Shown piece by piece: positions 1 to 33,105 of a stretch of 64,000 nt of DNA. Numbering within the stretch: position 1 is the stretch's first letter; the number at the start of each line of letters is the position of its first letter. The position numbers were made by a program, and so were the translations under genes. The stretch comes from Escherichia coli (GTDB lineage: Bacteria > Pseudomonadota > Gammaproteobacteria > Enterobacterales > Enterobacteriaceae), in NCBI RefSeq assembly GCF_003019035.1, contig NZ_CP027447.1; one strand, 5' to 3'. The notes beneath the pieces were generated by a model that was not told where the DNA came from, ran no database searches, and saw only the letters and a list, made by a program, of their open reading frames with translations.

Positions 1-564
1 ACGCCATCCTGTGCCAGCGTTCTTGAATGTCTTACTGAACTGGCGTTTGAGCTGGGAATGAATGACGCACCACGCCGTAAAGGGCCGCTCTCCCGCGCCC
101 TGCGACGTCGCCTTGAAGGTACACAGGGGCTGGTTATCATCGACGAAGCTGATCATCTTGGTGCCGAAGTTCTGGAAGAACTCCGCCTGTTACAGGAATC
201 AACCCGTATTGGCCTTGTGCTGATGGGAAATCACCGGGTTTATTCAAATATGACGGGGGGTAACAGAACGGTTGAATTTGCCCGTCTGTTTTCCCGTATT
301 GCAAAGCGCACTGCAATTAATAAAACCAAAAAAGCCGATGTAAAAGCTATTGCGGATGCCTGGCAGATTAACGGCGAAAAAGAACTGGAGTTATTACAGC
401 AGATTGCGCAGAAACCAGGTGCGCTTCGCATTCTGAATCATTCACTTCGCCTTGCCGCCATGACGGCTCACGGTAAAGGTGAGCGTGTTAACGCAGATTA
501 TCTGCGTCAGGCTTTCCGTGAATTAGACCTGGACGTTGATATTTCAACGCTGCTGCGTAATTAA
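1..564 (+). CDS. B: DNA transposition protein B (MuB ATPase), C-terminal part; 5' end off-window
   Basis: Frame is open from position 1; translation (LVIIDEADHLGAEVLEELRLL...) recognised as the MuB C-terminus. Confidence 0.85.
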   Translation, partial: TPSCASVLECLTELAFELGMNDAPRRKGPLSRALRRRLEGTQGLVIIDEADHLGAEVLEELRLLQESTRIGLVLMGNHRVYSNMTGGNRTVEFARLFSRIAKRTAINKTKKADVKAIADAWQINGEKELELLQQIAQKPGALRILNHSLRLAAMTAHGKGERVNADYLRQAFRELDLDVDISTLLRN

Positions 565-579
565 GAAGGAGAAGAAATT

Positions 580-807
580 ATGATGGCCCGAAATATAAAA
601 ATGGCAACGGATGCGCAGAACTGGTTACAGGCGCGCGGGAGTCATGTAAATGAATCATATCTCGGCGTGGCGCGTCCGATTCTTGAAATCACTTACCCAC
701 CGGTGGAACTGGTAAAAAACGCGGTCAGAATTATGGAGCATAAGTCCGGGGTGGCCCGTTCTGTATGGACGGCCCGTCTTAATGGTTGCCAGATTATCTG
801 GAGATAA
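580..807 (+). CDS. kil: Small early protein at the Mu kil position
   Basis: 75-aa ORF immediately after B, with an upstream AAGGAG ribosome-binding site; assignment by position only. Confidence 0.5.
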
Positions 808-809
808 CG

Positions 810-1040
810 ATGTGTATTAAAGCCGAAAAATATATTGAATGGGTTAAACACTGTCAGTGCCACGGGGTGCCGCTGACGACATATAAATGCCCCGGATGTG
901 GTGAACAGATTATGACGCAATGCTCACCCGAAAAGGAAATTCGGGATTCCCTGACATGTTGTCCGTGGTGCAGCGCGGTTTTCTTTAAGCAGGTAAAAGG
1001 CGCGAAGGTAAAAGCCAGCGCAGTTATTCAGAATCAATAA
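810..1040 (+). CDS. Cys-rich small early protein (zinc-ribbon-like CxC/CPGC/CCPWC motifs)
   Basis: ATG at 810 preceded by GGAG and coupled to the upstream stop; cysteine pairs in the translation. Confidence 0.5.
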   Translation: MCIKAEKYIEWVKHCQCHGVPLTTYKCPGCGEQIMTQCSPEKEIRDSLTCCPWCSAVFFKQVKGAKVKASAVIQNQ

Positions 1041-1051
1041 GGAGAAACAAA

Positions 1052-1321
1052 ATGGCAAAGGTTATCTTTGAGTTTACATGGCTGGAAAGTAGTGACGGTT
1101 GCAATGGGCGCAGAGAAGTTCTGGATGCAAAAGCATGTCTTGCAGATATCTCGCCAACGGAAAATACCGGGCCTCATGATTTACTGGCAAATATCGTCCT
1201 GACTATGGCTCCTGAAATTATTAAAAAGGCCAAAGATGAGATGCTGACCACTATGAAGAAAGTGGGTATGGAGGCTGAATGTGATTTAGTACCACATCCG
1301 GTGAATGCGGTTAAACATTAA
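1052..1321 (+). CDS. Hypothetical early (semi-essential region) protein
   Basis: 89-aa ORF with upstream AAGGAG; tightly packed same-strand early operon. Confidence 0.5.
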   Translation: MAKVIFEFTWLESSDGCNGRREVLDAKACLADISPTENTGPHDLLANIVLTMAPEIIKKAKDEMLTTMKKVGMEAECDLVPHPVNAVKH

Positions 1322-1341
1322 TTCGCAAAGGAGCGCTGACA

Positions 1342-1761
1342 ATGAACGTCAAAATCCGAAATGAAATTCAGGCATTAATCCGAATTCAGGAACGCAATAA
1401 CAACGGTGGTGAATTACGCGAGTTTATTTGCGCCCGGAAAGTTGATGGTTGTGGTGAAAAGACTTACCTGATTGCTTTCGACCATTACAGCATCTGTGCG
1501 CGTTATTGCGGCGAAAGCATATCCCGCGCCATTGCATTTGGCGGTGCGTTCAACGTGGATTTATGGGAGTACGTCATGGACCGGGAATACATCTGCGCAT
1601 CAGACCCTGAAGCCCGTGAAATGTGGCAGCGTATCTGGCGCGATTACCGGTTAATGGCAAAAGGCTGGGCGCGCTGCTGTTATTCCTCGCTTGCCCTGAA
1701 AGCGGTTCAGTTATCGCTACGGCATATTCCGGCATCACTGCGCGAGCCTCTGCTGTACTGA
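1342..1761 (+). CDS. Hypothetical early protein, Cys-rich
   Basis: 139-aa ORF with upstream AAGGAG. Confidence 0.5.
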   Translation: MNVKIRNEIQALIRIQERNNNGGELREFICARKVDGCGEKTYLIAFDHYSICARYCGESISRAIAFGGAFNVDLWEYVMDREYICASDPEAREMWQRIWRDYRLMAKGWARCCYSSLALKAVQLSLRHIPASLREPLLY

Positions 1762-2061
1762 ATGGTGACTGACATGAAGTGTAATCGTAAGCGCTGGTCA
1801 CGCGAAGACCGGGAATTTATCGAAGCCAACGTCGGAAAAATGACCGTTGAAGAAATGGCGGAAAAACTGAAAGTCGCCACAACCGCCCTCCGGGCACATG
1901 CCAGAAGGCACGGAATATCATTGTGTGTATACCGAATCAGTGAACACGACAAATATTTATGTCGTGAACTTTATAAAGAAGGACTGGATATTCATGTCAT
2001 TGCCCGAAAGATGGAATTAAGCAATCGAGCTGTATCCAGCATTGTATACAGCGGATATTAA
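1762..2061 (+). CDS. Hypothetical early protein, possible helix-turn-helix
   Basis: 99-aa ORF; start overlaps the upstream stop (ATGA-type coupling). Confidence 0.45.
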   Translation: MVTDMKCNRKRWSREDREFIEANVGKMTVEEMAEKLKVATTALRAHARRHGISLCVYRISEHDKYLCRELYKEGLDIHVIARKMELSNRAVSSIVYSGY

Positions 2062-2080
2062 TTAACAGGAGCTTTAATTT

Positions 2081-2605
2081 ATGGCTAAACCAGCAAAACG
2101 TATCAAAAGTGCCGCAGCGGCTTATGTGCCACAAAACCGCGATGCGGTGATTACCGATATTAAACGCATCGGGGATTTACAGCGCGAAGCATCACGTCTG
2201 GAAACGGAAATGAATGATGCCATCGCGGAAATTACGGAGAAATTTGCAGCCCGGATTGCACCGATTAAAACCGATATTGAAACCCTTTCAAAAGGTGTTC
2301 AGGGATGGTGTGAAGCGAACCGCGACGAACTGACAAACGGCGGCAAAGTGAAGACGGCGAATCTTGTCACCGGTGATGTATCGTGGCGGGTCCGTCCACC
2401 ATCAGTAAGTATTCGTGGTATGGATGCAGTGATGGAAACGCTGGAGCGTCTTGGCCTGCAACGCTTTATTCGCACGAAGCAGGAAATCAACAAGGAAGCG
2501 ATTTTACTAGAACCGAAAGCGGTCGCAGGTGTTGCCGGAATTACAGTTAAATCGGGAATTGAAGATTTTTCCATTATTCCGTTTGAACAGGAAGCCGGTA
2601 TTTAA
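2081..2605 (+). CDS. gam: Gam host-nuclease inhibitor / DNA end-binding protein
   Basis: 174-aa translation recognised as Mu Gam; position after the early ORF block matches Mu. Confidence 0.85.
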   Translation: MAKPAKRIKSAAAAYVPQNRDAVITDIKRIGDLQREASRLETEMNDAIAEITEKFAARIAPIKTDIETLSKGVQGWCEANRDELTNGGKVKTANLVTGDVSWRVRPPSVSIRGMDAVMETLERLGLQRFIRTKQEINKEAILLEPKAVAGVAGITVKSGIEDFSIIPFEQEAGI

Positions 2606-2703
2606 TACCACCATTAATATTTAATTAATTCACATTCTTTTAATTATGGCGCGATGCGTCAGGGGATTGCTCGCGCCTGAAACAGATTACTGAGGAATAA
2701 AAC

Positions 2704-3234
2704 ATGGTTGATGCAAAAATTCTGAATGGTGTCAGCACATTATTACGGGCTTACGGACGCCTGACCTGCGGAGTTCTGGCTGAAAAAATGAAGATGCCTC
2801 CCTCATCAATGGTGTATTTCCTGCGTGATGCGGTTGATGTCGGCGTTCTCACCGAATGCAACGGATTTTATGACGTTCCGCGCCCGCGTCCGACGCCGCC
2901 TGTAAGACGAAACGCAACTGAGCAGCCTGCTGTTGATGATGCGGTGTGGTGCAACTGGCGTCGCTCATTACCCTGGGTGGAAGGTAATACCATCCCCGCA
3001 CTGGCAAAAGAGTTTGCGACAGGCGTACTGACCTGTGAGTCCGTTCACATCGTTGCAGAAGTGGATGACGAGATGTGCAAACAGGGAATGCCACGTTTTG
3101 TGATGGCTTATATCGATATCCGGCTGGGGCGGTTTATTTGCAGTTCAAGCGCCTGGAATATCACCGACCATGTACTGCGTTATCTCATTCTTGATTGTTC
3201 TCCGGCTCCCGTAGCGGTGCAGGAGGTGGCGTGA
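2704..3234 (+). CDS. Hypothetical early protein
   Basis: 176-aa ORF, first of four coupled ORFs between gam and gemA. Confidence 0.5.
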   Translation: MVDAKILNGVSTLLRAYGRLTCGVLAEKMKMPPSSMVYFLRDAVDVGVLTECNGFYDVPRPRPTPPVRRNATEQPAVDDAVWCNWRRSLPWVEGNTIPALAKEFATGVLTCESVHIVAEVDDEMCKQGMPRFVMAYIDIRLGRFICSSSAWNITDHVLRYLILDCSPAPVAVQEVA

Positions 3235-3758
3235 TGTTTTTTAAAACGTCAAATCCCGCAGCACTGCTGGCGTGGGACCAGTTTATGGCGGACTGTCTGA
3301 AACTACGCGAAGAAGCCCGCCATCTTGATAAGGTTCTGGGTTGTGGTTGCCGGTCAGTATTCAGCACAGGTATTGGTGGGCGTTATTTTCATGGTGTGAA
3401 CTTTCCGGGGAATGAGCGCCCTTTCTCGCGGGAGCTGTGGACCGTACAACGGCCCGCATCAGGTAACAGTTGCAGGCCTAGAACTTCGCGGATACCTGTT
3501 CATCTCAGGGAGCAGGCAAAAGAGCTGGCGAAAATATGGCAGGAGAATATTCCGGTCACTTATGCCCGCACAGATGCTCTTTTACCCGCACTGGGACTGG
3601 ATTTCAGCGCAACAATATTCGGGCCGCTCCGGTGGTTCCGTGTTGGTGATGTGATTTACGTCATGACGGGGATGACACCCGCACAGGGCTGCATGACGGA
3701 AATCCTGTCCGATGAATTCATGAAGGCAAAGATTGCGTTAAAGGGGGCCGCTAAATGA
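3234..3758 (+). CDS. Hypothetical early protein
   Basis: ATG at 3234 overlaps the upstream stop (GTGATG); the six-frame ORF at 3195 is rejected as an upstream extension. Confidence 0.5.
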   Translation: MFFKTSNPAALLAWDQFMADCLKLREEARHLDKVLGCGCRSVFSTGIGGRYFHGVNFPGNERPFSRELWTVQRPASGNSCRPRTSRIPVHLREQAKELAKIWQENIPVTYARTDALLPALGLDFSATIFGPLRWFRVGDVIYVMTGMTPAQGCMTEILSDEFMKAKIALKGAAK

Positions 3759-4423
3759 AAGAACGTGGCGTTGCTTTTAATGACGATATGGTCAGGGCAA
3801 TTCTCGAAGGAAGAAAGACGCAAACACGCCGCCCGGTAAAAAATGTCGGACACGATAACTGTCTGGTTATCCATCGTAACGGTGTTTATACCCACGTTAT
3901 GGATGCACCTGAGCATGGTTTATGCCCGTTCGGTAACGTTGGTGATCGCATCTGGGTCCGTGAAGCGTGGGCAATATTAGGCAATGAGGATGGTTGCAGT
4001 GTGGACTGGAACGGCAACCTTTGTCATGGCGATGAGAAGAAGGCAGCAAGGATTTATCGGGCAAGTTGTGAACAAAAGCCTGGTGATTACGGTCTGTGGT
4101 CAATACCTGATGATGCTGACTGGAAACCTCGCACTGTGAATGAAAAGTTTGATGGCAGGTGGTGCCCATCTATCCACATGCCGCGCTGGGCGTCGCGCAT
4201 TCTGTTGGGAATAACCGACGTGCGTGTGGAACGGCTGCATGATATTAGCGAGGCAGATGCGAAAGCGGAAGGCGCATTTCCGGCGACGTACAAAATTACG
4301 CCACCGGAAGCTGTTTATCGCGTTGGTTTTGGTGATATCTGGCGCGGTATTTATGGGCAAGATAACTGGCTGTCTAATCCGTGGGTATGGGTAATTGAGT
4401 TTAAGCGTATTCAGGAAGCATAA
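3755..4423 (+). CDS. Early protein with N-terminal ASCH-like (PUA-fold) motif
   Basis: 222 aa; N-terminal motif MVRAILEGRKTQTRRP resembles the ASCH GxKTxTxR signature (compare E. coli YqfB); start overlaps upstream stop. Confidence 0.55.
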   Translation: MKERGVAFNDDMVRAILEGRKTQTRRPVKNVGHDNCLVIHRNGVYTHVMDAPEHGLCPFGNVGDRIWVREAWAILGNEDGCSVDWNGNLCHGDEKKAARIYRASCEQKPGDYGLWSIPDDADWKPRTVNEKFDGRWCPSIHMPRWASRILLGITDVRVERLHDISEADAKAEGAFPATYKITPPEAVYRVGFGDIWRGIYGQDNWLSNPWVWVIEFKRIQEA

Positions 4424-4425
4424 CT

Positions 4426-4767
4426 ATGAGCAAATCACTTAATGCACGTTGTATTCGCCGTTGGGAAGTCAGATTTAAGCCTGTTTGTGATTCAAAAGTT
4501 AGCCCTCACATGCGTAAAAGCTTTTTGCGTGGGGTGCGTGAATTAGGGCTTATTACGGCTGAAAACATGGTTGAAAGCATGGCTGAGAAAAACGCCAGGT
4601 TTGATTACGACGGCAAGGACACAGGCTGGTCACCGGAGTTTTCTAACTGGTATGCAACATGCCGAGAAAAGTATTGTAAAGAGGCCCGCGACTATCTGGA
4701 TGAAGAAGTCACAAACGATGAGATCGATGAAGAAATCAGAACTGAGCTAGAGTATTGGAATGACTAA
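4426..4767 (+). CDS. Hypothetical early protein with acidic C-terminus
   Basis: 113-aa ORF, coupled to neighbours. Confidence 0.5.
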   Translation: MSKSLNARCIRRWEVRFKPVCDSKVSPHMRKSFLRGVRELGLITAENMVESMAEKNARFDYDGKDTGWSPEFSNWYATCREKYCKEARDYLDEEVTNDEIDEEIRTELEYWND

Positions 4768-5392
4768 TCTGGCCGATATGACCGGAAAGTGTTTCAGCGA
4801 TACAAGCGGTGTGGTAGCACCGCTTTTTAAAGGTATGATCATGAGTCGCACATCCCTGATTAAATTAATCCATGTCGCCCGTCGTGATCTACAACTCGAC
4901 GACGATACTTACCGCGCTTTTCTGATGCAGAAAACGGGCAAAATCAGTTGCCGCGAGCTGACGGTAACGCAACTGGAACAGGTGCTCGATGCCATGAAAG
5001 AACGCGGCTTTAAGAAGCTGAATAAACATCCACGTCGCCGCTTTAAGGGGCATGTCACGCCCCGCGAGAAGGTATACAAAGTCTGGCAGCAGATGGCAGA
5101 AGACGGTTTTATTACCGATGGCGGTGATGTGGCGCTGGATAAATATGTTCAGCGCCTGACGGCGAAACGTAATGGCGGACAGGGTGTTTCCACGCTGGCG
5201 TGGTGTCATGGCGACACCCTGTTGATTGTTCTCGAAACTCTCAAGCAGTGGCATATCCGCTGTATTCGTGAAGCCTTTTCCCGTCACGGGCTTCCGTTGC
5301 CGGTCAGTCCGTCCGGGCGTGAACTGCGCGGCTATGATGCCATGACGGCGGCTTATGCCCATGCCAGAAAGACACGGAGGATGGCACAATGA
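4760..5392 (+). CDS. gemA: GemA-like early protein
   Basis: Position immediately upstream of mor as in Mu; true start may be the internal ATG at 4841 (MSRTSLIKL...). Confidence 0.65.
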   Translation: MTNLADMTGKCFSDTSGVVAPLFKGMIMSRTSLIKLIHVARRDLQLDDDTYRAFLMQKTGKISCRELTVTQLEQVLDAMKERGFKKLNKHPRRRFKGHVTPREKVYKVWQQMAEDGFITDGGDVALDKYVQRLTAKRNGGQGVSTLAWCHGDTLLIVLETLKQWHIRCIREAFSRHGLPLPVSPSGRELRGYDAMTAAYAHARKTRRMAQ

Positions 5393-6197: not shown

Positions 6198-6620
6198 ATG
6201 CAGCATGATTTATTTGAACACGATCCGGCAATTCGCCAGTTAATCGGACATATTGATAACATCCCGGCCCCGGAACTGGAATCACGCTGGCCCCGTTCGG
6301 TGGTTGATCTGATTGATGTTCTGGAAAACGAACTGAAACGCCAGAACGTCAGCAATCCCCGTGAACTTGCCCGTAAACAGGCCGTTGCCCTGTCCTGTTT
6401 TCTGGGGGGGCGGCAGTTTTACATCCCCTGCGGCGATACTATCCTGACCGCGTTACGCGACGATTTGCTTTACTGCCAGTTCAATGGTCGTAACATGGAA
6501 GAACTGCGTCGCCAGTACCGCCTGTCCCAGCCGCAGATCTACCAGATTATTGCCCGCCAGAGAAAGCTGCATACACGACGTCATCAGCCTGATCTGTTCT
6601 CACCTGAAAGCCAGAAATAA
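6198..6620 (+). CDS. C: C, late gene transcriptional activator
   Basis: 140 aa, Mor/C family; position matches Mu. Confidence 0.85.
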   Translation: MQHDLFEHDPAIRQLIGHIDNIPAPELESRWPRSVVDLIDVLENELKRQNVSNPRELARKQAVALSCFLGGRQFYIPCGDTILTALRDDLLYCQFNGRNMEELRRQYRLSQPQIYQIIARQRKLHTRRHQPDLFSPESQK

Positions 6621-6640
6621 CCGGCATCCTGCCGGTTATT
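6616..6640 (+). terminator. Hairpin overlapping the C stop codon, possible terminator
   Basis: ATAACCGGC-ATCCT-GCCGGTTAT inverted repeat; weak T tract. Confidence 0.4.
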
Positions 6641-6644
6641 TCCT

Positions 6645-6711
6645 GTCACCATAATCCCGCACCTGCCATCTGATTTTTTAGACTGCCATCAGAGCATTTT
6701 TTCAGGGAAGC
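6645..6711 (+). promoter_or_regulatory. Late promoter P-lys with candidate C-binding motif
   Basis: CCATAATCCCGCACCT (6649-6664) shares CATAA(C/T)CCC...CCCGCACCT with the region upstream of gene I. Confidence 0.5.
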
Positions 6712-9133: not shown

Positions 9134-10789
9134 ATGAACACCAGAGAAAACAACCTTAAAGCCCTTCATGCCCCCCGAAAAATCAACCTGCGTGAGGAAG
9201 CCGAACTGCTCGGCGTGAATATCGTGACCGATATCGGGGAAGCACAGCCCCGCAATGAACCGGTTTTTCTGGGCTATCAGCGCCGCTGGTTTGAGGATGA
9301 AAGCCAGATTTGCATCGCTGAAAAATCCCGTCGTACCGGTCTGACATGGGCCGAAGCGGGCCGCAATGTCATGACGGCAGCAAAGCCGCGCCGCCGTGGC
9401 GGTCGCAACGTCTTTTATGTGGGTTCCCGTCAGGAAATGGCGCTGGAATATATCGCCGCCTGTGCCCTGTTTGCCCGCGCCTTTAACCAGCTGGCAAAGG
9501 CTGATGTCTGGGAGCAGACCTTCTGGGACAGCGACAAAAAAGAAGAAATCCTCACTTATATGATCCGTTTCCCTAACAGCGGATTTAAGGTGCAGGCGCT
9601 GTCAAGCCGTCCGTCTAACCTGCGTGGTTTGCAGGGGGACGTGGTGATTGATGAGGCGGCATTTCATGAAGCCCTGGACGAACTCCTGAAAGCGGCCTTT
9701 GCTCTCACCATGTGGGGTGCCCGCGTGCGGATCATATCGACACATAACGGCGTCGATAACCTGTTTAACCAGTACATTCAGGATGCGCGCGAGGGGCGCA
9801 AGGATTACAGCGTTCACCGCATCACGCTGGATGATGCCATCGCTGACGGGTTGTACCGACGTATCTGTTACGTCACGAATCAGCCGTGGTCGCCGGAAGC
9901 GGAAAAAGCCTGGCGTGATGGCCTGTACCGGAATGCGCCGAATAAAGAGAGTGCCGACGAGGAATACGGCTGCATTCCTAAAAAATCCGGGGGCGCTTAT
10001 CTGTCACGCGTGCTGATTGAAGCCGCCATGACGCCAGCGCGGGATATCCCGATTCTGCGTTTTGAAGCCCCGGACGATTTTGAATCGCTGACACCACAAA
10101 TGCGCCACGGCATCGTTCAGGACTGGTGTGAACAGGAGCTGCTCCCGTTGCTCGATGCGCTGTCGCCGCTCAATAAACACGTACTGGGCGAAGACTTTGC
10201 ACGCCGTGGCGACCTGACGGTGTTTGTTCCGCTTGCCATCACTCCTGACTTACGCAAACGCGAATGTTTCCGCGTGGAGCTGCGTAATGTGACCTATGAC
10301 CAGCAGCGACAAATCCTTTTATTCATTCTGTCCCGTTTGCCCCGTTTTACCGGCGCTGCATTTGATGCCACCGGTAACGGCGGTTATCTGGCAGAAGCCA
10401 CCCGTCTGATTTATGGCCCGGAGATGATCGACTGTGTGAATCTGACCGCATCCTGGTATCAGGAGTGGATGCCAAAACTGAAAGGCGAGTTTGAAGCGCA
10501 GAACATCACGATTGCCCGGCACCAGACCACTCTTGATGACCTGCTCCACATCAAGGTGGACAAAGGTATTCCGCAGATTGATAAGGGGCGCACAAAAGAT
10601 GAAGGTGGTAAAGGCCGACGACATGGCGACTTTGCCGTGGCGCTCTGTATGGCTGTCAGAGCGTCTTATATGAATGGTTTTGTTATCGACGAGGACAGCA
10701 TACAGGCGCTGCCACCACGCCACCGTGGTGATGATGTTGATAACGATGATTTTGATGATTATCACCAGTTTGAACGAGGGGGCTGGTAA
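9134..10789 (+). CDS. E: Terminase large subunit
   Basis: ATG at 9134 (MNTRENNLKAL...), 551 aa; the six-frame ORF start at 8942 is an in-frame upstream extension overlapping the previous gene. Confidence 0.85.
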   Translation: MNTRENNLKALHAPRKINLREEAELLGVNIVTDIGEAQPRNEPVFLGYQRRWFEDESQICIAEKSRRTGLTWAEAGRNVMTAAKPRRRGGRNVFYVGSRQEMALEYIAACALFARAFNQLAKADVWEQTFWDSDKKEEILTYMIRFPNSGFKVQALSSRPSNLRGLQGDVVIDEAAFHEALDELLKAAFALTMWGARVRIISTHNGVDNLFNQYIQDAREGRKDYSVHRITLDDAIADGLYRRICYVTNQPWSPEAEKAWRDGLYRNAPNKESADEEYGCIPKKSGGAYLSRVLIEAAMTPARDIPILRFEAPDDFESLTPQMRHGIVQDWCEQELLPLLDALSPLNKHVLGEDFARRGDLTVFVPLAITPDLRKRECFRVELRNVTYDQQRQILLFILSRLPRFTGAAFDATGNGGYLAEATRLIYGPEMIDCVNLTASWYQEWMPKLKGEFEAQNITIARHQTTLDDLLHIKVDKGIPQIDKGRTKDEGGKGRRHGDFAVALCMAVRASYMNGFVIDEDSIQALPPRHRGDDVDNDDFDDYHQFERGGW

Positions 10790-12327: not shown

Positions 12328-13627
12328 TCTGGCGTATGCCGCACGCCTCCCGCCAAAGGAGGCTGTCGCGTATTTCCGCGCCAAAGGCTACAACATCACC
12401 TGGAACTGGTACGAACAACTGGCAGACGCGCACGCCCGCGCCTTTACCGTTGCCAAAGCCACCCGGATGGATGTCCTGACCACAATCCGTGAGGAAGTGG
12501 AGCGGGCTGTCAGTGAAGGCATCACCCGTGAGGAATTTACCCGCACACTGGCCCCCCGGCTGCAAAAACTCGGATGGTGGGGAAAACAAATCATCGTGGA
12601 TGCAGACGGAAACGCGAAGGTAATCGAGCTGGGCAGTCCGCGTCGTCTGGCAACCATTTATAACGTCAATACCCGTACGGCGTATGGGGCAGGACGTTAT
12701 GCGCAGATGATGAATACCGCCGATTTGTACCCGTACTGGCAGTACGTTGCCGTTATGGATGGCAGAACACGCCCGGAACATGCGCGGCTGCACAATATGG
12801 TTTTCCGGTATGACGACATTTTCTGGCAGACGCATTACCCGCCCAATGGCTGGAACTGCCGCTGTCGCGTCCGGGCGCTGTCTGCGGCCCGCATGAAAGA
12901 ACTGGGGCTACAGGTCAGTTATGGTGCGTCATTCATGAATACCCGCGAAGTGGATGCCGGTACGGATGAAAGCACCGGAGAGATTTTCCGCACATCGTCA
13001 ACCACGTTTGACAACGGTCGGGTAAAAATGACGCCAGATGTGGGCTGGTCATATAACCCTGGTTCGGCGGCATTTGGTACGGATCAGGCACTGATTCGAA
13101 AACTGGTGGAAATTCGCGACGCGCAGTTGCGTGAGCAGGTTGTTCAGACGCTGAATAACAGCCGGGAGCGTCAGCTTGCTTTTTCCCTCTGGCTTAAACG
13201 CTTGGCAGGATCACGTCAGACCGGTCATGAAATCTGGGCACTGGGTTTTATGACGGAATCGGTAGCTGAAGCCGTACATCAGCGCACCGGGAATATGCCA
13301 GCCCGTCTGCTTGTGATGAACGGGAAAAGTCTGGCGACCACTGCTGATGCCGCCCTGAAACCGGAGGATTTACAGCATCTGCCGTCGCTGATGGCAAAAC
13401 CACAGGCAGTATTGTGGGACAGGGAGAACCACCAGTTGCTGTATGTTGTGGCAACCCGTGACGGCATGGCCCGGATTGTGGTCAGAACATCACAGACAGT
13501 CGGCAGGCAGAATGACCGTGCGGATGTGCTGGTCAGTATCAGCCGCGTATCTGCACAGTCGCTTGAAACCGCGATTGCTGACGGGATGATTGACGTACTG
13601 GAGGGGCATGTGGAGGTGAATAAGTGA
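12272..13627 (+). CDS. F: Head morphogenesis protein (Mu F-like)
   Basis: 451-aa ORF; true start may be the internal ATG at 12308. Confidence 0.8.
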   Translation: MPFLLPIYGGVWMPQQTIDLAYAARLPPKEAVAYFRAKGYNITWNWYEQLADAHARAFTVAKATRMDVLTTIREEVERAVSEGITREEFTRTLAPRLQKLGWWGKQIIVDADGNAKVIELGSPRRLATIYNVNTRTAYGAGRYAQMMNTADLYPYWQYVAVMDGRTRPEHARLHNMVFRYDDIFWQTHYPPNGWNCRCRVRALSAARMKELGLQVSYGASFMNTREVDAGTDESTGEIFRTSSTTFDNGRVKMTPDVGWSYNPGSAAFGTDQALIRKLVEIRDAQLREQVVQTLNNSRERQLAFSLWLKRLAGSRQTGHEIWALGFMTESVAEAVHQRTGNMPARLLVMNGKSLATTADAALKPEDLQHLPSLMAKPQAVLWDRENHQLLYVVATRDGMARIVVRTSQTVGRQNDRADVLVSISRVSAQSLETAIADGMIDVLEGHVEVNK

Positions 13628-14094
13628 GTCTTGATATGAACGTTGCCGTGGATGTGCGACGTATTCAGCTTGCACTGGATGAACTGGGAACCGTTACACG
13701 TGACCGCGCCATTCCCCGTGTGATGGCTGCGGCGCTGCTGTCATCCACGGAACAGGCATTTGAACGGCAGGCAGACCCGGATACAGGGAAAGGCTGGGAA
13801 GCGTGGAGCGATTCGTGGCAGGCATGGCGTCAGGATCATGGTTTTGTTCCGGGCAGTATCCTTACCCTGCATGGCGATCTGGCACGCAGCATTACCACCG
13901 ATTATGGACAGGATTATGCCCTGATTGGTTCGCCAAAAATTTATGCTGCCATTCATCAGTGGGGCGGTACACCCGATATGGCACCCCGCCCGGCAGGCGT
14001 TCCTGCGCGTCCTTATATGGGGCTGGATAAGACCGGGGAACAGGAAATTTTTGATGCCATCAGAAAACGCGTCAGCGCTGCTCTGAGGCAATAA
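13624..14094 (+). CDS. G: Virion morphogenesis protein (Mu G-like)
   Basis: 156 aa; position matches Mu. Confidence 0.7.
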   Translation: MSLDMNVAVDVRRIQLALDELGTVTRDRAIPRVMAAALLSSTEQAFERQADPDTGKGWEAWSDSWQAWRQDHGFVPGSILTLHGDLARSITTDYGQDYALIGSPKIYAAIHQWGGTPDMAPRPAGVPARPYMGLDKTGEQEIFDAIRKRVSAALRQ

Positions 14095-14290
14095 ACTGAA
14101 TCAGACATGAAATCAGCTGCACAGATTTTTTAAAACGCGCCACGGGATTTTTAAACCGGTATTTAACGGTGTATGAATCCCGTTTTATCTTCCTTCCACT
14201 TTCTTTCTCCATTACTCAAATAGCATAACCCCAGATTTTCCCGCACCTCCCGCAAACTGACTGCTCACAAACCATGATGAGCAGCAGGAC
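14095..14290 (+). promoter_or_regulatory. G-I intergenic region: late promoter P-I and expected location of the Mu strong gyrase site
   Basis: Only sizeable non-coding gap in the structural block; CATAACCCC...CCCGCACCT motif at 14224-14250. Confidence 0.5.
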
Positions 14291-15376
14291 ATGAAAAAAC
14301 ACGCGATTGGCATTGCCGCACTGAGTGCGCTGTCCATTGACGATGACGGCTGGTGCCAGCTATTGCCTGCCGGTCATTTCAGTGCCCGTGATGGTCGTCC
14401 GTTTGATGTGACAGACGGTCAGGGGTGGTTCATCGACGGTGAGATTGCCGGGCGTCTGGTTGAAGGCGTTCGCGCGCTCAACCAGGACGTGCTGATTGAT
14501 TACGAGCATAACCAGCTACGTAAGGACAAAGGATTACCCCCGGAACAACTCGTCGCGGCTGGCTGGTTTAACGCCGATGAAATGCAGTGGCGTGAAGGTG
14601 AAGGGTTATTTATCCACCCACGCTGGACGGCGGCGGCCCAGCAGCGCATCGATGACGGCGAATTTGGTTATCTCTCTGCGGTTTTTCCGTATGACACCGC
14701 CACCGGTGCAGTGCTGCAAATCCGCCTTGCTGCGCTGACCAATGACCCCGGTGCCACCGGCATGAAAAAGCTGACCGCACTGGCGGCAGACCTTCCCGAC
14801 ATCCTTCAACAGGAGAACAAACCCATGAATGAAACGCTGCGCAAGCTGCTTGCGCGTCTTGGGGTGACGGTCCCCGAAAATGCAGACATCACCGATGAAC
14901 AGGCCAGCGCGGCCCTGAGTGCGCTTGATGCGCTCGAAACAGATGCCGGAAAAGTGGCGGCGTTGTCTGCCGAACTGGAAAAGGCACAGAAAGCCGCCGT
15001 TGACCTGACGAAATACGTCCCGGTGGAAAGCTACAACGCCCTGCGTGATGAACTGGCACAGGCGACTGCACAAAGCGCCACAGCCAGCCTGAGCGCCGTT
15101 CTGGACAAGGCGGAACAGGAAGGCCGCATTTTCAAAAGCGAACGTACCTATCTGGAACAGCTTGGCGGTCAGATTGGCGTGGCGGCACTGTCGGCACAGC
15201 TTGAGAAAAAACAGCCTATCGCTGCGTTATCTGCCATGCAGACCACCACAGCGAAAATCCCGTCGCAGGAAAAAACGGCGGTGGCGGTGCTGTCTGCTGA
15301 TGAACAGGCAGCAGTGAAGGCGCTCGGCATTACAGAGGCTGAGTATCTGAAAATGAAACAGGAACAAGAAAAATGA
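14291..15376 (+). CDS. I: Head protease / scaffold protein (Mu I; in-frame C-terminal Z scaffold expected)
   Basis: 361 aa; Ala/Glu-rich coiled-coil C-terminus typical of scaffolds. Confidence 0.8.
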   Translation: MKKHAIGIAALSALSIDDDGWCQLLPAGHFSARDGRPFDVTDGQGWFIDGEIAGRLVEGVRALNQDVLIDYEHNQLRKDKGLPPEQLVAAGWFNADEMQWREGEGLFIHPRWTAAAQQRIDDGEFGYLSAVFPYDTATGAVLQIRLAALTNDPGATGMKKLTALAADLPDILQQENKPMNETLRKLLARLGVTVPENADITDEQASAALSALDALETDAGKVAALSAELEKAQKAAVDLTKYVPVESYNALRDELAQATAQSATASLSAVLDKAEQEGRIFKSERTYLEQLGGQIGVAALSAQLEKKQPIAALSAMQTTTAKIPSQEKTAVAVLSADEQAAVKALGITEAEYLKMKQEQEK

Positions 15377-17737: not shown

Positions 17738-17927
17738 ACCCGCAGCGGGAAAAGCCATCCGTGACCCGCTCACGATGAAATTACTGGCTCCGGAGGGAGA
17801 AGAAAAGCCCCGTAACAGTTTCTGGATACGTCGCCTTGCTGCCGGTGATGTGGTTGAAGTCGGGAGCACCGAAAACACGGCGGATGATACCGACGCTGCG
17901 CCGAAAAAACGGAGTAAATCGAAATGA
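17721..17927 (+). CDS. Small hypothetical protein (Mu gp38 position)
   Basis: 68-aa ORF. Confidence 0.45.
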
Positions 17928-19411
17928 GCGATATTTCATTTAACGCGATCCCGTCAGATGTTCGCGTTCCTCTGACGTATATCGAATTTGATAACAGTAA
18001 TGCCGTCAGCGGAACACCGGCACCCCGTCAGCGCGTGCTGATGTTCGGGCAAAGCGGAAGTAAAGCCAGTGCGGCACCAAACGTGCCTGTCCGTATCCGT
18101 TCCGGCTCACAGGCCAGTGCGGCGTTTGGTCAGGGTTCCATGCTGGCACTGATGGCAGATGCATTCCTGAACGCTAACCGCGTGGCGGAGCTGTGGTGTA
18201 TTCCGCAGGGGAACGGCACCGGTAATGCGGCTGTCGGTGAAATTTCACTGTCAGGAACGGCAGGCGAAAACGGCTCGCTTGTGACTTACATTGCCGGTCA
18301 GCGACTGGCGGTATCTGTCGCAGCAGGTGCAACGGGAGCGGCGCTGGCTGACCTGCTGGTTGCCCGAATCAAAGGCCAGCCTGATTTACCGGTGACGGCA
18401 GAAGTTCGCGCAGACAGCGGGGATGATGACACCCATGCAGATGTGGTTCTGAGTGCAAAATTTACGGGTGCATTATCTGCCGTGGACGTGCGCTGGAACT
18501 ATTACGCGGGTGAAACGACCCCTTACGGGATTATCACGGCATTCAAAGCCGCCTCCGGGAAAAATGGCAACCCGGATATCAGCGCAAGTATCGCGGGAAT
18601 GGGCGATCTGCAATACAAATATATTGTGATGCCCTATACCGATGAACCGAACCTGAATCTGTTACGCACTGAATTGCAGGAACGCTGGGGACCGGTCAAT
18701 CAGGCTGATGGCTTTGCTGTGACAGTGCTGTCCGGCACGTATGGGGACATTTCCACGTTTGGTGTCAGCCGTAATGACCATCTGATTTCCTGTATGGGGA
18801 TTGCCGGTGCACCGGAACCGTCATATCTGTACGCCGCCACACTGTGTGCCGTTGCCAGCCAGGCGCTTTCCATCGACCCGGCGCGTCCACTCCAGACGCT
18901 GACGTTGCCCGGAAGAATGCCGCCTGCGGTGGGGGATCGTTTCACCTGGTCAGAACGTAATGCGCTGCTGTTTGACGGCATCTCCACGTTTAACGTGAAT
19001 GATGGTGGTGAAATGCAGATTGAACGCATGATCACGATGTACCGCACAAACAAGTACGGTGACAGCGATCCGTCTTATCTGAACGTGAATACCATCGCCA
19101 CGCTGAGTTATCTGCGTTATTCGCTGCGAACCCGCATCACGCAGAAATTCCCGAACTACAAGCTGGCAAGTGATGGCACCCGCTTTGCCACCGGTCAGGC
19201 CGTGGTGACGCCATCCGTGATCAAAACGGAGCTGCTGGCACTGTTTGAAGAATGGGAAAACGCCGGACTGGTCGAGGATTTCGACACGTTCAAAGAGGAG
19301 CTGTATGTGGCACGTAACAAGGACGACAAAGACCGTCTTGATGTGCTGTGCGGCCCGAATCTGATTAACCAGTTCCGCATTTTCGCGGCACAAGTTCAGT
19401 TCATTCTGTAA
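17924..19411 (+). CDS. L: Contractile tail sheath protein
   Basis: 495 aa; followed by a tube-sized gene. Confidence 0.85.
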
Positions 19412-22442: not shown

Positions 22443-23930
22443 ATGTTTGAAGATGCTTTAAATGCCGTTAATGCTGTCCGGGATAAAATCAGCGGTGGTA
22501 AGAAAACAACCGGCAAAGGCACGTTTCGTAACGTGCCGTTTCTCGTCATCGAGGAGCAAAAACAGGCTGGCGGACGTCGCCTGGTTAAACGCGAGTACCC
22601 GTTACGTGATACCGGCGGCGTCAATGACCTGGGGAAAAAGCTTCGCTCCCGTACATTCAGCGCCTGCATTCTGAACAGCAACGCAGAAACAGCCAGAGAT
22701 GAAGCGGGTGCGCTGATGGATGCTCTTGATGCTCCGGGTAGCGGTGAGCTGGTACATCCTGATTTCGGCACTGTGGACGTCATGGTGGATTCATGGGAAT
22801 GCCGCACTAAAGCGGATGAACTGAATTATTACGCGTTCACCGTTACCGTTTATCCGTCGTTGCAGGATACTGCCCCGGACGCAGAGACAGACACCAGTGC
22901 AGCCGTACCGGCACAGGCCGTTGCTGTAACCGGTTCTCTGGGAGATACGCTATCCTCTGTCTGGCAGACCGTAAAAGATGGCACTGCGGCGGCAACCGCC
23001 GTGATGGAAGCTGTAACCGGTGTCATCGATGATATCAGTGATGCGGTGGACAATCTGGGGGTTACGCAGACTGTCAGCGGTCTGATGGGATCGCTTTCTG
23101 CGATGAAAGGCTCTGTGACCAGCCTGATTAACCAGCCTGCCATGCTGGCCTCCTCGCTGATGGGGGCGCTGTCCGGCGTTTCATCGTTATGCGATACCCG
23201 GACAGCATTTTCCACATGGAACCGTCTGGCGCAGCGATTCGAACGTCGCCATGCCGCCACCGCAGGCAGACAGGGGGCAATCACAACCTCGTACAACAGT
23301 CCGGTTGCAGAAAAAAATATTGCCACACTGAACTACGTCATGCTGGCAGCAGCACAGACATACCGAGCGGAGGCAGCAAGCCAGGCACTGACTGCGGCAC
23401 TGGATTTCAGTCGCCGGATGGATAATGCCGCCCGTGCACCTGTACTGGATGCCCCGTCCACCACAACCGGCACAGCCAGCGGGGCCAGCAGCACATCCGC
23501 TACCGTCACACAGGGACAGTTACAGTTAACTGCCATAACCCCGGACGGCGGCTTTTCACAGGTATCCTTTTCAGACAGTGGTACAGCCACGCCCCCGGTA
23601 TTTGAAAGTGTGTCCGATATCGGAAAAACAGCCGCCATGCTGGGGGCTGCACTGGATACCGTCATTCTGACGGCATCTGAGCAGGGCTTTTCGACAGACA
23701 GCGTTCAGCTTACGCAACTGCGTCTGCTGGTTGTTGCCGACCTGGAAAAACGCGGGCTGCAACTGGCGGGCAGTGAAACGCACCGCCTGCCGGAGACGAT
23801 GCCTGCAATGGTGGCCCTGTACCGTTACACAGGAAACAGCCGGAACTGGCAACGGCTGGCCCGCAGGAACGGTATCAGCAACCCGTTGTTTGTTCCCGGT
23901 GGTGTCAGTATTGAGGTGATTAATGAGTAA
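22443..23930 (+). CDS. N: DNA circularisation protein (Mu N)
   Basis: 495 aa; position matches Mu. Confidence 0.8.
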
Positions 23931-27693: not shown

Positions 27694-29048
27694 TGTTTTA
27701 TATTGATAACGACAGCGGCGTAACCGTCATGCCGCCCGTATCCGCCCAGCGTAGTGCTATCGTTCGCTGGTTTTCAGAAGGTGACGGGAATAATGTTATC
27801 ACATGGCCCGGCATGGACTGGTTTAATATTGTTCAGGCGGAGTTATTAAACACGCTGGAAGAAGCTGGTATTCAACCGGATAAAACAAAATTAAACCAGC
27901 TTGCACTGTCCATTAAAGCCATTATGAGCAATAACGCGCTGCTGATAAAAAATAACCTCAGCGAAATTAAAACTGCCGGGGCATCAGCACAGCGTACAGC
28001 ACGTGAAAATCTGGATATCTATGATGCCAGCCTGAACAAAAAAGGACTCGTTCAGCTAACCAGTGCCACTGACAGCCCCAGTGAAACGCTGGCAGCCACC
28101 GCAAAAGCGGTGAAAATTGCGATGGATAATGCCAATGCCCGTCTGGCAAAAGACCGGAACGGAGCAGATATTCCCAATAAGCCGCTGTTTATCCAAAACC
28201 TCGGTTTACAGGAAACGGTAAACAAGGCTGGTAACGCTGTTCAGCGTTCTGGCGATACAATGACCGGAAAACTGAATCTACCACAGACATCTGCATTCGG
28301 CGTTAATACCGATAATGCACTGGGTGGTAATTCCATTACTCTCGGAGATAACGACACCGGTATTAAACAGGGCGGCGATGGTGTCCTTTTATTCTATTTA
28401 AATGGACAACTGATATTTGGGCTTCAACCCACATCCGCTGATTTTTATAAGCGAGTTGCCTACATTCATCAGGGAGTAGCTCCAGATGGGAGTGGCGCAT
28501 TTGCAGACCAGTTAAATAATGCCACCGCGCCTTTTGTTCAGACGCAGTTTGCCTGGAATCCCACTCCTGGCGGTCATTACGTACCGATAGCTAAGGGCTT
28601 GTCCATTCGCAATGGACAGGGGTATCCAGGTGCGGTCAGCTTTGGTTATTTACTAACTGAACAAATGGGATTTCCCATACCATGCATTCATATGCGTGGA
28701 GATTACGGAGCTGATGCTTTGTGGCAGTTTAACCCGAACGATAAATCTTTTATTTCACCGGGGGCTCTTGTTGCGGGTGGCATCCGTTATAACACCGATG
28801 GAAATATATTTGGCGGGTGTTGGGGTTCAAATTTAGCTGATTATCTCAATAGCACATATGTAAGAGACATTCGACTTGGTAGCGCAGAATCAATATCAGC
28901 ATGGCGAGGCCCTGGTTACTGGGATACTTCTGGATATGTTCTGACCGCAGCCGGAAACAGCAACACCGATGAATTTATTGATACATTAACCAGAAGGCCT
29001 ATTCAGAAGTTGATTGGTGGGACATATTATAACGTTGTGAGTATTTGA
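27693..29048 (+). CDS. S: Tail fibre protein S: constant part outside the G segment, variable part inside
   Basis: 451 aa; gix site at 28188-28215 lies within the gene; C-terminus YYNVVSI parallels the S' C-terminus WYNVASV. Confidence 0.8.
28188..28215 (+). repeat. gix recombination site (left) for Gin invertase
   Basis: TTATCCAAAACCTCGGTTTACAGGAAAC; inverted copy at 31023-31048 with one mismatch in the 26 aligned bases. Confidence 0.85.
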
Positions 29049-29049
29049 C

Positions 29050-29577
29050 ATGATGCATTTAAAAAACATTAAAGCAGGGAACCCAAAAACACCTGAACAA
29101 TACCAGTTAACCAAAAAAGCTGGAGTGGTCTGGCTTTATACTGAAGATGGTAAAAACTGGTACGAAGAACAAAAAAACTTTCAACCAGATACTATAAAAA
29201 TTGCATACGATAAAAATAATGTGATTGTTACCGTAAGCAAAGATGTTTCAACGATTAACCCGGAAGGTTTAAGTGTTGTTGAAGTATCCGATATTACGGC
29301 AAATCGTCGCGCAGACAATAACGGAAACTGGATGTTTCTGGATGGTAAAGTAGTAAAGCGGGAATATACAAAACAGGAGCTGCAACAGCAGGCAGAGTTA
29401 CAAAAATCCGCTTTGCTTTCCGAAGCGGAGTCTGTGATTCAACCGCTGGAACGTGCTGTCAGGCTGAATATGGCAACTAATGAGGAACGCGCACGACTGG
29501 AGTCATGGGAACGCTACAGTGTTCTGGTCAGCCGTGTGGATACGGCAAATCCTGAATGGCCACAAAAGCCTGAATAA
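29050..29577 (+). CDS. U: Tail fibre assembly protein U
   Basis: 175 aa; paralogous to the U' ORF on the opposite strand. Confidence 0.8.
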
Positions 29578-29582
29578 AAATT

Positions 29583-29602
29583 AAGGCCCGATAGCGGGCC
29601 TT
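29583..29602. terminator. Hairpin between convergent U and U', possible bidirectional terminator
   Basis: AAGGCCCG-ATAG-CGGGCCTT; A/T-rich flank on the U' side. Confidence 0.5.
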
Positions 29603-29605
29603 GTC

Positions 29606-30139
29606 TCATTCTGGTTGTTCCGGGAATGTTACAGGAAGAACAGAGGTATCTGTGGCATCAACCTGCTGCATGTATAACATCCAGTTAATGAGTCTTTGCC
29701 TGTCTGAATCGCTGATAATTCCCAGCGCAAGCTGTGTTTGCCAGCACTGCGTTTCCTCTCTGGCCTGTCGCAGCAAAATCTGTTTCTGAATTTCAGCCAG
29801 TTGACGTAGTTCTTCATCAGTCCGGGGGCGTTTCATGACCTTGCCATCCTGAAACACCCAGTCACCGAGAATATCGGCCCGGCGATTCGCTGTCGTGTCG
29901 GGTAATTCGACAACGCTCATTCCTTCCGGGTTAATAGACGACACATCTTTTTCAATATAGCGAATGATACCTCTGTCATCGTAAGCGATTTTTAGTGTGT
30001 CTGCCTGAAAGGCTTTTTGTGCCTCATACCAGTTCTGACCATCTTCAGCGTAAAGCCAGATAACACCATGTCTCTTTGTTAACTCATACTGTTCCAGTGT
30101 TTTAGCATTACCCGCTTTTATGTTCTTTAAGTGCATCAT
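29606..30139 (-). CDS. Tail fibre assembly protein U' (silent in this orientation)
   Basis: 177 aa, same N-terminus as U ([11 protein letters not shown]...). Confidence 0.8.
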   Translation of the reverse strand: MMHLKNIKAGNAKTLEQYELTKRHGVIWLYAEDGQNWYEAQKAFQADTLKIAYDDRGIIRYIEKDVSSINPEGMSVVELPDTTANRRADILGDWVFQDGKVMKRPRTDEELRQLAEIQKQILLRQAREETQCWQTQLALGIISDSDRQRLINWMLYMQQVDATDTSVLPVTFPEQPE

Positions 30140-30140
30140 A

Positions 30141-30998
30141 TTAAACGCTCGCTACATTATACCAGGTGCCATTTATATACTTTTGAACGGGTCTGTAATA
30201 AACGCCCGCTATATTATCGGCAGAGTTGGACCCTGTATCCTGAACATTAATACCAGACAATACATGACCTGACGGGCACTTGAAATTCCATGTTTGCCAG
30301 TTGTTCACACCATGATATTGCTGTGAACCAAGACGAACATCTTTTACGTATCGGGAATCAAAGTTACTCCAGTTACTTGGTTGTATGTGACCGTTTACAG
30401 CAAATATCACCGAATTATCTGTATTTCGCTGACTATAGAAATGCCAGCCTGAATCATCACCAAGCTCTGCAACAGTTGGTCTTGATGAAGTGCCCCATAA
30501 ATTAAAACCTACGTTTTTCGTGGAGTTGTTGGAGCTGGATAGCGTGAATTTTTTACCATCCCCGGCCTGAACGTTTTTAAAAGCAATAGCAACTCCATTC
30601 TGAAAGCGGAATACTCGCTGACTATTAGCGTAAACATCCAGAATACCGTCTCCATTCTGTTTAAATCCGGTATCATTATCACCAAGAACAATAGAGCTAC
30701 CACCTAACGCATTCGTCGTACCAACTCCAAGGCTGCCATTAATGACGGCATTAACAAGAATATTTAGTGCATCCCATTTCAGCGTCATCAGGTCTTTTGT
30801 TGTGGTGCTTTGTTTGCTTCTCCATTTGAAATATTCATTGCCGTTGTCGCCTGTTTCAAACCACATGTATGAATCAGTGTCACCATCGGCATCATTTTTA
30901 AATCCAATCTTCGCCCAGTCAGTATTTCGAATCCAGGCAAGGATTGAGTCATTTTCAAAAGTAAGCCCACCGGACAAAGTATCGCCATTTTTTTGCAC
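30141..30998 (-). CDS. Alternative tail fibre variable part S' (promoterless, silent in this orientation)
   Basis: 285-aa ORF from first ATG; real reading frame should run from the gix site. Confidence 0.75.
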   Translation of the reverse strand: MQKNGDTLSGGLTFENDSILAWIRNTDWAKIGFKNDADGDTDSYMWFETGDNGNEYFKWRSKQSTTTKDLMTLKWDALNILVNAVINGSLGVGTTNALGGSSIVLGDNDTGFKQNGDGILDVYANSQRVFRFQNGVAIAFKNVQAGDGKKFTLSSSNNSTKNVGFNLWGTSSRPTVAELGDDSGWHFYSQRNTDNSVIFAVNGHIQPSNWSNFDSRYVKDVRLGSQQYHGVNNWQTWNFKCPSGHVLSGINVQDTGSNSADNIAGVYYRPVQKYINGTWYNVASV

Positions 30999-31022
30999 GG
31001 CATTACCAGCCCTGTTTACCGT

Positions 31023-31684: not shown

Positions 31685-31778
31685 ATCGATCGGTAATACA
31701 GATCGATTATGCCCCAATAACCACACTCAACCCATGATGTTTTTTAAGATAGTGGCGAATTGATGCAAAGGAGGTGAG
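31665..31778 (+). promoter_or_regulatory. com-mom promoter region with three clustered GATC Dam sites
   Basis: GATC at 31670, 31688 and 31701; CCCCAATAACC C-box-like motif; GGAGG ribosome-binding site before com. Confidence 0.65.
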
Positions 31779-31967: not shown

Positions 31968-32634
31968 GTATGAAGGCCAGATTGTTGGCTATGGTTCAAA
32001 GGAGCTGCGCGTTGAAACCATATCCTGCTGGCTGGCCCGCACAATTATTCAGACAAAGCACTATTCCCGCCGTTTTGTGAATAACTCTTACCTCCACCTG
32101 GGAGTGTTCAGCGGACGCGATCTGGTTGGCGTTCTCCAGTGGGGATATGCCCTTAACCCCAACTCAGGTCGTCGTGTCGTGCTTGAAACGGATAACCGGG
32201 GCTATATGGAGTTGAATCGCATGTGGCTACACGACGACATGCCCCGCAACTCTGAATCACGGGCCATCAGCTACGCGCTGAAAGTTATCAGATTACTGTA
32301 TCCGTCAGTGGAGTGGGTTCAGTCCTTTGCTGACGAACGCTGCGGACGCGCAGGCGTTGTGTATCAGGCGTCGAATTTTGATTTTATTGGCAGCCATGAA
32401 AGCACGTTCTACGAGCTGGATGGTGAGTGGTATCACGAGATAACGATGAACGCAATTAAGCGCGGTGGACAACGAGGCGTGTATTTACGGGCTAATAAAG
32501 AGCGTGCCGTGGTGCACAAATTTAATCAGTATCGCTACATCAGGTTCCTGAACAAGCGAGCAAGGAAGCGACTAAATACTAATCTATTCAGGATCCAACC
32601 ATATCCAAAATCAACTCTGACTAGTATCAAATAA
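31888..32634 (+). CDS. mom: Mom DNA modification protein (anti-restriction adenine modification)
   Basis: 248-aa ORF from first in-frame ATG, overlapping com; real start uncertain. Confidence 0.8.
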
Positions 32635-32769
32635 CTTATTTATTCCTGCTGAAAAGCAGCTCCTCATGGCATAAAATTGTTCACGTGAGTTTAAAATGAC
32701 CAAATGGCAGTACAGTATTTGGTCATTTTATGGGGTGAATTTTAAAGTCAAAACGATGGTAAGGTGCAT

Positions 32770-33105
32770 ATGAAAAAAATACTCATAGCAGTACTACTTT
32801 GCTTTGGTGTTCTTTCTGCTAATCAGGCAATAGCGGCTGTTACCTTAAGCGGTAAGTATCCTGCATGCATATCTGCTAATGAATTCGAGCGATTAAGCTC
32901 AATTTTGCAACACGAAGATCAAGAGGCGTTTGAAGAGATCTTTAAGACATCATGCTTTATGCCTAAAAAGGGGGTTAAAGTTGATAAAGTTGTTTCTATG
33001 GGGTGGACCAGTGGAGTTGCGCATGTCAAAGTTTATGTAAAAGGCAATCTTTACGATCTTTGGACTAACACCGAAAATCTTCAGTCCGAGAAGGCTGGTA
33101 AATAA
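32770..33105 (+). CDS. Small secreted protein of unknown function between mom and the Mu right end
   Basis: ATG at 32770 preceded by AAGGTG; signal peptide MKKILIAVLLCFGVLSANQAIA; mature part ~90 aa with two Cys; AT-rich. Confidence 0.55.
   Translation: MKKILIAVLLCFGVLSANQAIAAVTLSGKYPACISANEFERLSSILQHEDQEAFEEIFKTSCFMPKKGVKVDKVVSMGWTSGVAHVKVYVKGNLYDLWTNTENLQSEKAGK

Follow-up and report, generated by a model that had tools for sequence, protein, structure and literature searches.

The question raised by this locus is whether the one sizeable non-coding gap among the structural genes of a Mu-family prophage, between genes G and I, carries the central strong gyrase site (SGS) known from phage Mu and, if so, how much of the gap belongs to it. 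To our knowledge, the Mu SGS is the strongest of all known gyrase sites, and it is a standard substrate in gyrase biochemistry and structure work. The prophage occupies positions 1-33407 of the window, the term used here for the whole stretch of 64,000 nucleotides of the Escherichia coli chromosome that was analyzed. The first base of the window aligns to Mu 3733, inside gene B, and the left 3.7 kb of the prophage (left end, c, ner and A, the transposase gene) lies outside it. The right end is found at 33407 (Mu right end ...TTCGTGCGCCGCTTCA), followed by the E. coli genes ddpA/ddpX/dosP. Alignment of Mu 9832-32002 with the prophage (22 kb) gives 98.2% identity with a single indel, and the genome-wide divergence of the prophage from Mu is 1.75%.

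The G-I gap is 196 bp long, spans exactly 14095-14290 and is poor in open reading frames (ORFs). Its G+C content is 43%, against 56-57% in the flanking genes. The initial annotation had described it as the only sizeable non-coding gap in the structural block, and the Mu annotation bears this out. There, the late-region gaps of more than 10 bp are G-I (196 bp), T-gp35 (66 bp, the next largest), gp41/56-gp42 (14 bp) and gp26-D (11 bp). The gap and its flanks hold the following features:

13624-14094, plus strand: gene G (virion morphogenesis / neck protein), 156 aa; Pfam PF05069 Phage_tail_S, E = 1.6e-42.
14048-14087, no strand assigned: predicted left arm of the SGS (-65 to -26), placed by the PMC6463007 boundaries through the gap-free Mu alignment; one difference from Mu, at 14079.
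14088-14137, no strand assigned: predicted core of the SGS (-25 to +25), which is the gate segment; its dyad is at 14112/14113.
14111-14114 (Mu 17876-17879), no strand assigned: predicted 4-bp stagger AATC, placed by the GenBank mark, the cryo-EM bonds and the center of the 133-bp experimental fragment.
14130-14167, plus strand: three phased A/T blocks (TTAAA, 16 nt, TTAAA, 7 nt, TTAAC), running from the core edge into the right arm.
14138-14197, no strand assigned: predicted right arm of the SGS (+26 to +85), after PMC6463007, PMC13284261 and PMC11626157; its only difference from Mu is at 14196.
14142-14192, plus strand: terminator-like hairpin (stem ACGGGAUUU/AAAUCCCGU with an inner stem), then UUUUAUCUU, from RNA folding; it overlaps the right arm of the SGS.
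14212-14278, plus strand: C-dependent late promoter P_I, identical at 66/67 positions to the annotated Mu promoter at 17977-18043.
14291-15376, plus strand: gene I (head protease/scaffold), first gene of the P_I transcript, 361 aa; Pfam PF10123 Mu-like_Pro, E = 1e-97.

The proposal that the G-I gap is the place of the Mu SGS is upheld by a gap-free alignment to the characterized site, in a position between the PF05069 gene G and the PF10123 gene I. The Mu GenBank records NC_000929 and AF083977 carry a misc_feature named ‘gyrase cut site’ at 17879..17880, 20 bp past the G stop codon. The window aligns to Mu at this site with an offset of 3765, so that Mu 17879/17880 corresponds to window 14114/14115. 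The 133-bp ‘Mu SGS’ fragment used experimentally, which originates from Sutormin et al., covers Mu 17812-17944 and is centered on 17878; its counterpart is window 14047-14179. Alignment to the characterized Mu gyrase site had been named at the outset as a means of checking the assignment, and over this fragment 128/133 bases match the reference Mu sequence. Cryo-EM of gyrase on a 217-bp Mu SGS fragment has located the scissile bonds at dA/dA and, on the other strand, at 5′-T/GATTT-3′ (PMC11626157). In the window, the bonds would fall at 14110/14111 on the top strand and at 14114/14115 on the bottom strand. The top-strand bond is deduced from the 4-bp 5′ stagger, and the bottom-strand bond is the GenBank ‘gyrase cut site’ itself. 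The AATC of the stagger is unchanged from Mu.

If the published boundaries are applied (-65 to +85 relative to the dyad), the SGS would extend over approximately 14048-14197 and would start 47 bp inside G. The last 47 bp of this gene, whose product is 98.7% identical to Mu G, thereby double as the left arm. The idea that the whole gap serves as the SGS stands for its first half only, as the distal half consists of P_I and the ribosome-binding region. The arms are unequal in Mu: in PMC6463007, the left arm is given as dispensable and the first 40 bp of the right arm as essential. PMC13284261, citing Oram 2006, likewise gives the right arm as required and the left arm as not. In the prophage, the essential stretch (14138-14177, +26 to +65) has the same sequence as in Mu and does not vary among nine aligned phage records, three near-identical IMG/VR contigs and one metagenome contig.

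The window and Mu were also scored against a published 133-bp gyrase consensus, using unweighted exact and strong/weak (G+C versus A+T) matching. This did not single out the SGS of the window among the positions scored, and the authentic Mu SGS ranked at approximately 1,400-5,000 of 73,170 positions, depending on the measure and strand. Since the authentic site was not singled out either, this crude test is uninformative and was discarded; unweighted consensus matching cannot replace a position-weight matrix. An integration host factor (IHF) site in the core was considered separately and rejected, as there was no match by eye against WATCARNNNNTTR.

The gap also carries the P_I late promoter motif, as the initial annotation had stated. 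The motif, CATAACCCC, lies at 14224-14232, within the stretch that is nearly identical to the Mu late promoter. It aligns with CATAATCCC in Plys (6638-6704), CATAACCCC in PP (23522-23588) and AATAACCAC in Pmom (31704-31770), and CATAA(C/T)CC is common to all four. The gene of the activator is also found in the window:

6198-6620, strand not stated: activator gene C, a 140-aa ORF equivalent to Mu C at 9963-10385.

The interval 13600-14800 contained no sigma-70 consensus promoter, which would be as expected for an activator-dependent P_I.

Between the core and P_I, the transcript of 14142-14183 folds into a branched hairpin of -19.8 kcal/mol (z = -3.3), with the U tract UUUUAUCUU next to it. This hairpin coincides with a TransTermHP terminator in AF083977 (17908-17953, window 14143-14188). 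Nothing in the gap was called by a simple scan for terminators and promoters; the hairpin escaped the scan because its loop is too long and its stem long and branched, and it was found by folding. A search of Rfam over 13900-14450 gave no RNA family match at E <= 1. It is probable that the hairpin is the end of the lys-to-G late transcript.

The right arm displays a 10-11 bp A/T periodicity. The best 50-bp segment of the right arm (start 14144) is matched by 0.01% of all segments of that length, and the best 60-bp and 70-bp segments by 0.5-1%, these fractions being somewhat optimistic because the best segment was picked among approximately 35 candidates. The phased blocks were written as a pattern (TT[AG]A[AC], 15-17 nt, TT[AG]A[AC], 6-8 nt, TT[AG]A[AC]), which has a single match on both strands of the 64-kb window, at 14130-14167.

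The wider distribution of the blocks was followed in 70 IMG/VR loci encoding G homologues at 30-99% identity. The sequence 3′ of G diverges almost completely among these relatives, and the gap is mostly 80-217 bp long, with one outlier of 676 bp. Three TTT(T)(A/G)AA blocks at fixed spacing recur 3′ of G and hold the only invariant columns of the alignment. In its strict form, the three-block pattern is matched downstream of G in 37/67 related loci and nowhere else in these loci (0 matches in a background of 426 kb); as the pattern was written after the sequences had been seen, its match rate in relatives is partly circular, whereas the background rate is not. In related viral contigs, down to a G identity of approximately 41%, the blocks are retained after G even as the surrounding sequence has diverged and the cleavage core drifts without restraint. 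Most of the non-matching loci with a G identity of at least 41% have a recognizable variant of the blocks, such as GATTTTCTAACCTGTATTTAACGGGCTTTAAAA in the enterohemorrhagic E. coli (EHEC) Mu-like element. The blocks are absent only from a group with a G identity of 30-33%.

Differences from Mu are concentrated in the core. Five are located in the 133-bp fragment (14079, which lies in G, 14097, 14105, 14109 and 14118), and a sixth is found at 14196 (+84), in the distal right arm. All four of those within the SGS portion of the gap up to 14179 are core changes: 14097 (-16, A>T), 14105 (-8, G>A), 14109 (-4, A>G) and 14118 (+6, C>T). At the genome-wide divergence, 0.9 substitutions would be expected in the 50-bp core, against the four observed (binomial P = 0.011), and these four may have an effect on cleavage efficiency. 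Three of the four (-16 T, -8 A and -4 G) form a haplotype that is common to D108 and Mu_3F6, the latter being 99.8% identical to the window over 1.2 kb. The T at 14118 is private, as both of these phages have C there. It was not found in 13 phage records or in 39 site-carrying complete E. coli genomes (best match: one mismatch in 66 bp), and the single metagenome contig that matches a degenerate core pattern has C at the equivalent position. This T may be a real allele or an assembly error. The gap as a whole is present at 96.9% identity or more in only 40/5,426 complete E. coli genomes, some of which hold two or three copies, and none of the copies in these 40 genomes is identical to that of the window.

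A separate observation concerns the experimental fragment itself. The 133-bp sequence of Sutormin et al. was taken from pMP1000, which carries a nuB-mutant SGS, and its only difference from reference Mu is G17881C (equivalent to window 14116). This change is at odds with those of nuB1 and nuB103 as they are described in the Fig. 7 legend of PMC6463007. With the position-weight matrix of Sutormin et al. (Table DS10), this nuB-allele fragment has a score of 14.3.

Other explanations of the interval must be weighed against its identification as the SGS. One is that the gap is only transcription punctuation, consisting of the lys-to-G terminator and P_I, with the right arm conserved for the RNA hairpin and not for gyrase. 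The stable hairpin and U tract at 14142-14192, the terminator annotated there in the Mu record and the presence of P_I are all in keeping with this, and comparable hairpins occur in some relatives (z = -4.1 in L035 and -2.2 in L042). The relatives also provide an argument to the contrary. Four of them (L022, L028, L031 and L074) keep the three A/T blocks, although the hairpin is absent or no better than in shuffled sequence, and in the L016-L021 group the blocks lie in an 81-bp gap that ends at the start codon of I and is too short for P_I. Because the blocks persist without the hairpin or room for the promoter, the DNA-level A/T signal is the more widely conserved feature. In addition, published deletion and replacement experiments in Mu tie the replication phenotype to gyrase binding. 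Punctuation alone is very unlikely, and the hairpin and gyrase-site roles, which overlap, do not exclude each other. It is harder still to credit that the gap encodes a small protein, for which there are two candidates: ‘31.5’ of D108 (42 codons, window 14100-14228, plus strand) and a 46-aa ORF of Mu_3F6 (14072-14212, minus strand). Each is annotated as a coding sequence in one phage record, and the minus-strand ORF also appears in the mechanically produced ORF list. Neither has a Pfam or PHROG family or is annotated in Mu, SfMu or other records, and the plus-strand ORF has no ATG, GTG or TTG at its annotated 5′ end. The gap varies in sequence and in length (80-217 bp in most relatives and 676 bp in a single one), and hence preserves no reading frame. 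Both small ORFs over the gyrase site are probably spurious gene calls.

It could also be argued that the site is a genuine SGS that has decayed, in that the core changes at -16, -8, -4 and +6 have weakened gyrase cleavage and the prophage no longer benefits from it. The clustering of the four differences in the 50-bp core would fit such decay, as would the private T at +6. Both -4 A>G and +6 C>T depart from the published consensus bases that flank the stagger (-2 and +7 in Topo-Seq numbering), but the Mu core itself matches this consensus poorly. Three of the four changes are those of the D108 / Mu_3F6 haplotype, and these phages were isolated as viable. Furthermore, the AATC stagger and the essential right arm are unchanged, and the intact state of all the late genes that were checked speaks against a decaying element. 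Loss of function is a very improbable reading of the core changes.

The reading preferred here, which can be held with high confidence, is that the G-I gap comprises the Mu SGS together with a separate, overlapping terminator-like hairpin and P_I. The mechanism was worked out in published studies of Mu and would apply to this copy by extension. Host DNA gyrase would take the core as its gate segment and cut AATC (14111-14114) with a stagger of 4 bp. The right arm (14138-14197), with the minor grooves of its phased A/T blocks turned toward the protein, would wrap the GyrA C-terminal domain and be presented as the T segment. Such an arrangement has been seen by cryo-EM: one GyrA C-terminal domain is encircled by the right arm, whose A/T minor grooves are directed at the protein, and the same arm supplies the T segment (PMC11626157). 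This wrapping would result in unusually stable gyrase binding and highly processive supercoiling. A plectoneme growing from the SGS would carry this site at its apex and hold both ends of the prophage at its base, and it would pair the left and right ends because the SGS lies midway between them. With the ends paired for transposase-mediated synapsis, replicative transposition could start promptly after induction. The SGS would also keep the prophage as a separate chromosomal domain. In the distal part of the gap, the hairpin would close the lys-to-G late transcript and the C-activated P_I would start the I transcript.

Studies of Mu have reported that deletion of the SGS delays replication by approximately 100 minutes and that the SGS works best when placed centrally (PMC10052514). 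What is blocked is the synapsis of the ends: for loxP sites on either side of the prophage, the deletion reduces Cre-mediated recombination by a factor of 30 (PMC3820752). The initial annotation had placed the gap near the middle of the prophage, and this holds in a conditional form. The dyad is 19.3 kb from the right end (33407) and would be approximately 17.8 kb from the left end, or at about 48% of the prophage, if the missing part is equivalent to Mu 1-3732. Centrality is not readable from the window alone, as the left 3.7 kb is outside it. Among 22 near-full-length relatives, the G stop codon lies at a median of 0.50 of the contig (range 0.41-0.56), the contig ends not being verified phage ends. 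This mid-genome position agrees with the central gyrase sites published for Mu-like prophages (Oram and Pato 2004, as cited in PMC3820752).

The prophage looks functional in the part that is seen, because all of the late genes checked are intact. Simple translation at positions transferred from Mu gave intact ORFs for 26/27 genes from lys to gp48, the check leaving out gp41/56, a programmed frameshift product. We infer that the prophage is competent for transposition; its left end and transposase gene lie beyond the window.

Several features of the prophage outside the gap were observed in the course of the comparison with Mu. In the semi-essential early region, 1059-1327 and 3718-4831 do not align to Mu at the megablast level. 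As their flanks are 97-99% identical to Mu, these two intervals look like mosaic replacements. The tail-fibre / invertible G-segment region (28237-31011) also diverges from Mu, with U only 79.6% identical, and a piece of it aligns to Mu in inverted orientation (31048-30735). This alignment suggests a different host-range module or a different orientation of the G segment. Between mom and the right end of the prophage, a 670-bp segment of low G+C content (37-41%; 32604-33273) has no Mu counterpart. Neither the phage collection nor a set of 5,426 complete E. coli genomes yielded a megablast match to it, and it contains an ORF:

32764-33105, plus strand: 113-aa ORF with a signal-peptide-like N terminus (MKKILIAVLLCFGVLSANQAIA).

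This ORF had no Pfam or PHROG match. The segment is possibly a ‘moron’, accessory cargo carried at the right end of the prophage. On the host side, strain SCU-301 is a 100% match to the flank from just past the right end of the prophage (query base 109 onward), and this match suggests that SCU-301 has the same chromosomal site without the prophage.

The presence of a Mu SGS in a Mu-family prophage is already known and expected, and it is no new biology. The value of the present analysis lies in a precise map of the SGS in the window, including the cut site, the arms, the overlapping hairpin and P_I. It also catalogues natural SGS alleles, in which the core is polymorphic, whereas close relatives show no variation in the essential right arm. 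The three-block pattern marks the SGS in diverged Mu-like phages and could serve their annotation. A more far-reaching conjecture can be put forward only tentatively, as we consider it rather unlikely. It holds that the right arm is a specific three-block code, TTT(A/G)AA(C) at spacings of approximately 21 and 12 bp, and not a matter of generic bendability. It further holds that natural core alleles, such as the private 14118 C>T on the D108-type core, tune gyrase cleavage in the way that the laboratory nuB mutations do.

When known gyrase sites are compared with that of the prophage, those of plasmids (pSC101 par, pBR322) and of the chromosome (REP/BIME) are the most distant. They have in common with it the preferential binding and cleavage by gyrase and phased G+C/A+T flanks, but differ in having no sequence similarity and a different biological role. 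In the replacement experiments of Pato, plasmid and chromosomal gyrase sites reportedly failed to stand in for the Mu SGS.

Other Mu-like prophages (E. coli O157 Sp18-type, Haemophilus, Neisseria and Salmonella) are alike in having a central G-I (or equivalent) gap with phased A/T blocks, and the EHEC Mu-like element has AACC(T/G)GTATTTAACGG in common with Mu. They differ in that their G proteins are 41-69% identical, their cores are different and the arrangement of the blocks is partly different. The central gyrase sites of other Mu-like prophages were the subject of the 2004 work of Oram and Pato, in which only some of them are said to have been able to replace the Mu SGS.

The sites of D108 and Mu_3F6 are much closer, as they have the core haplotype (-8 A, -4 G, -16 T) and the right arm of the prophage, and are set apart from it by the C at the 14118 equivalent, where the prophage has T. 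The Mu SGS itself differs from that of the prophage by the five substitutions in the 133-bp fragment and the one at 14196, with 14118 C>T private to the prophage. The two correspond in several respects: the site has its cut mark 20 bp after G, has the AATC stagger, matches at 128/133 bases, keeps the essential right arm and the terminator-like hairpin, has a probable mid-genome place and is followed downstream by P_I.
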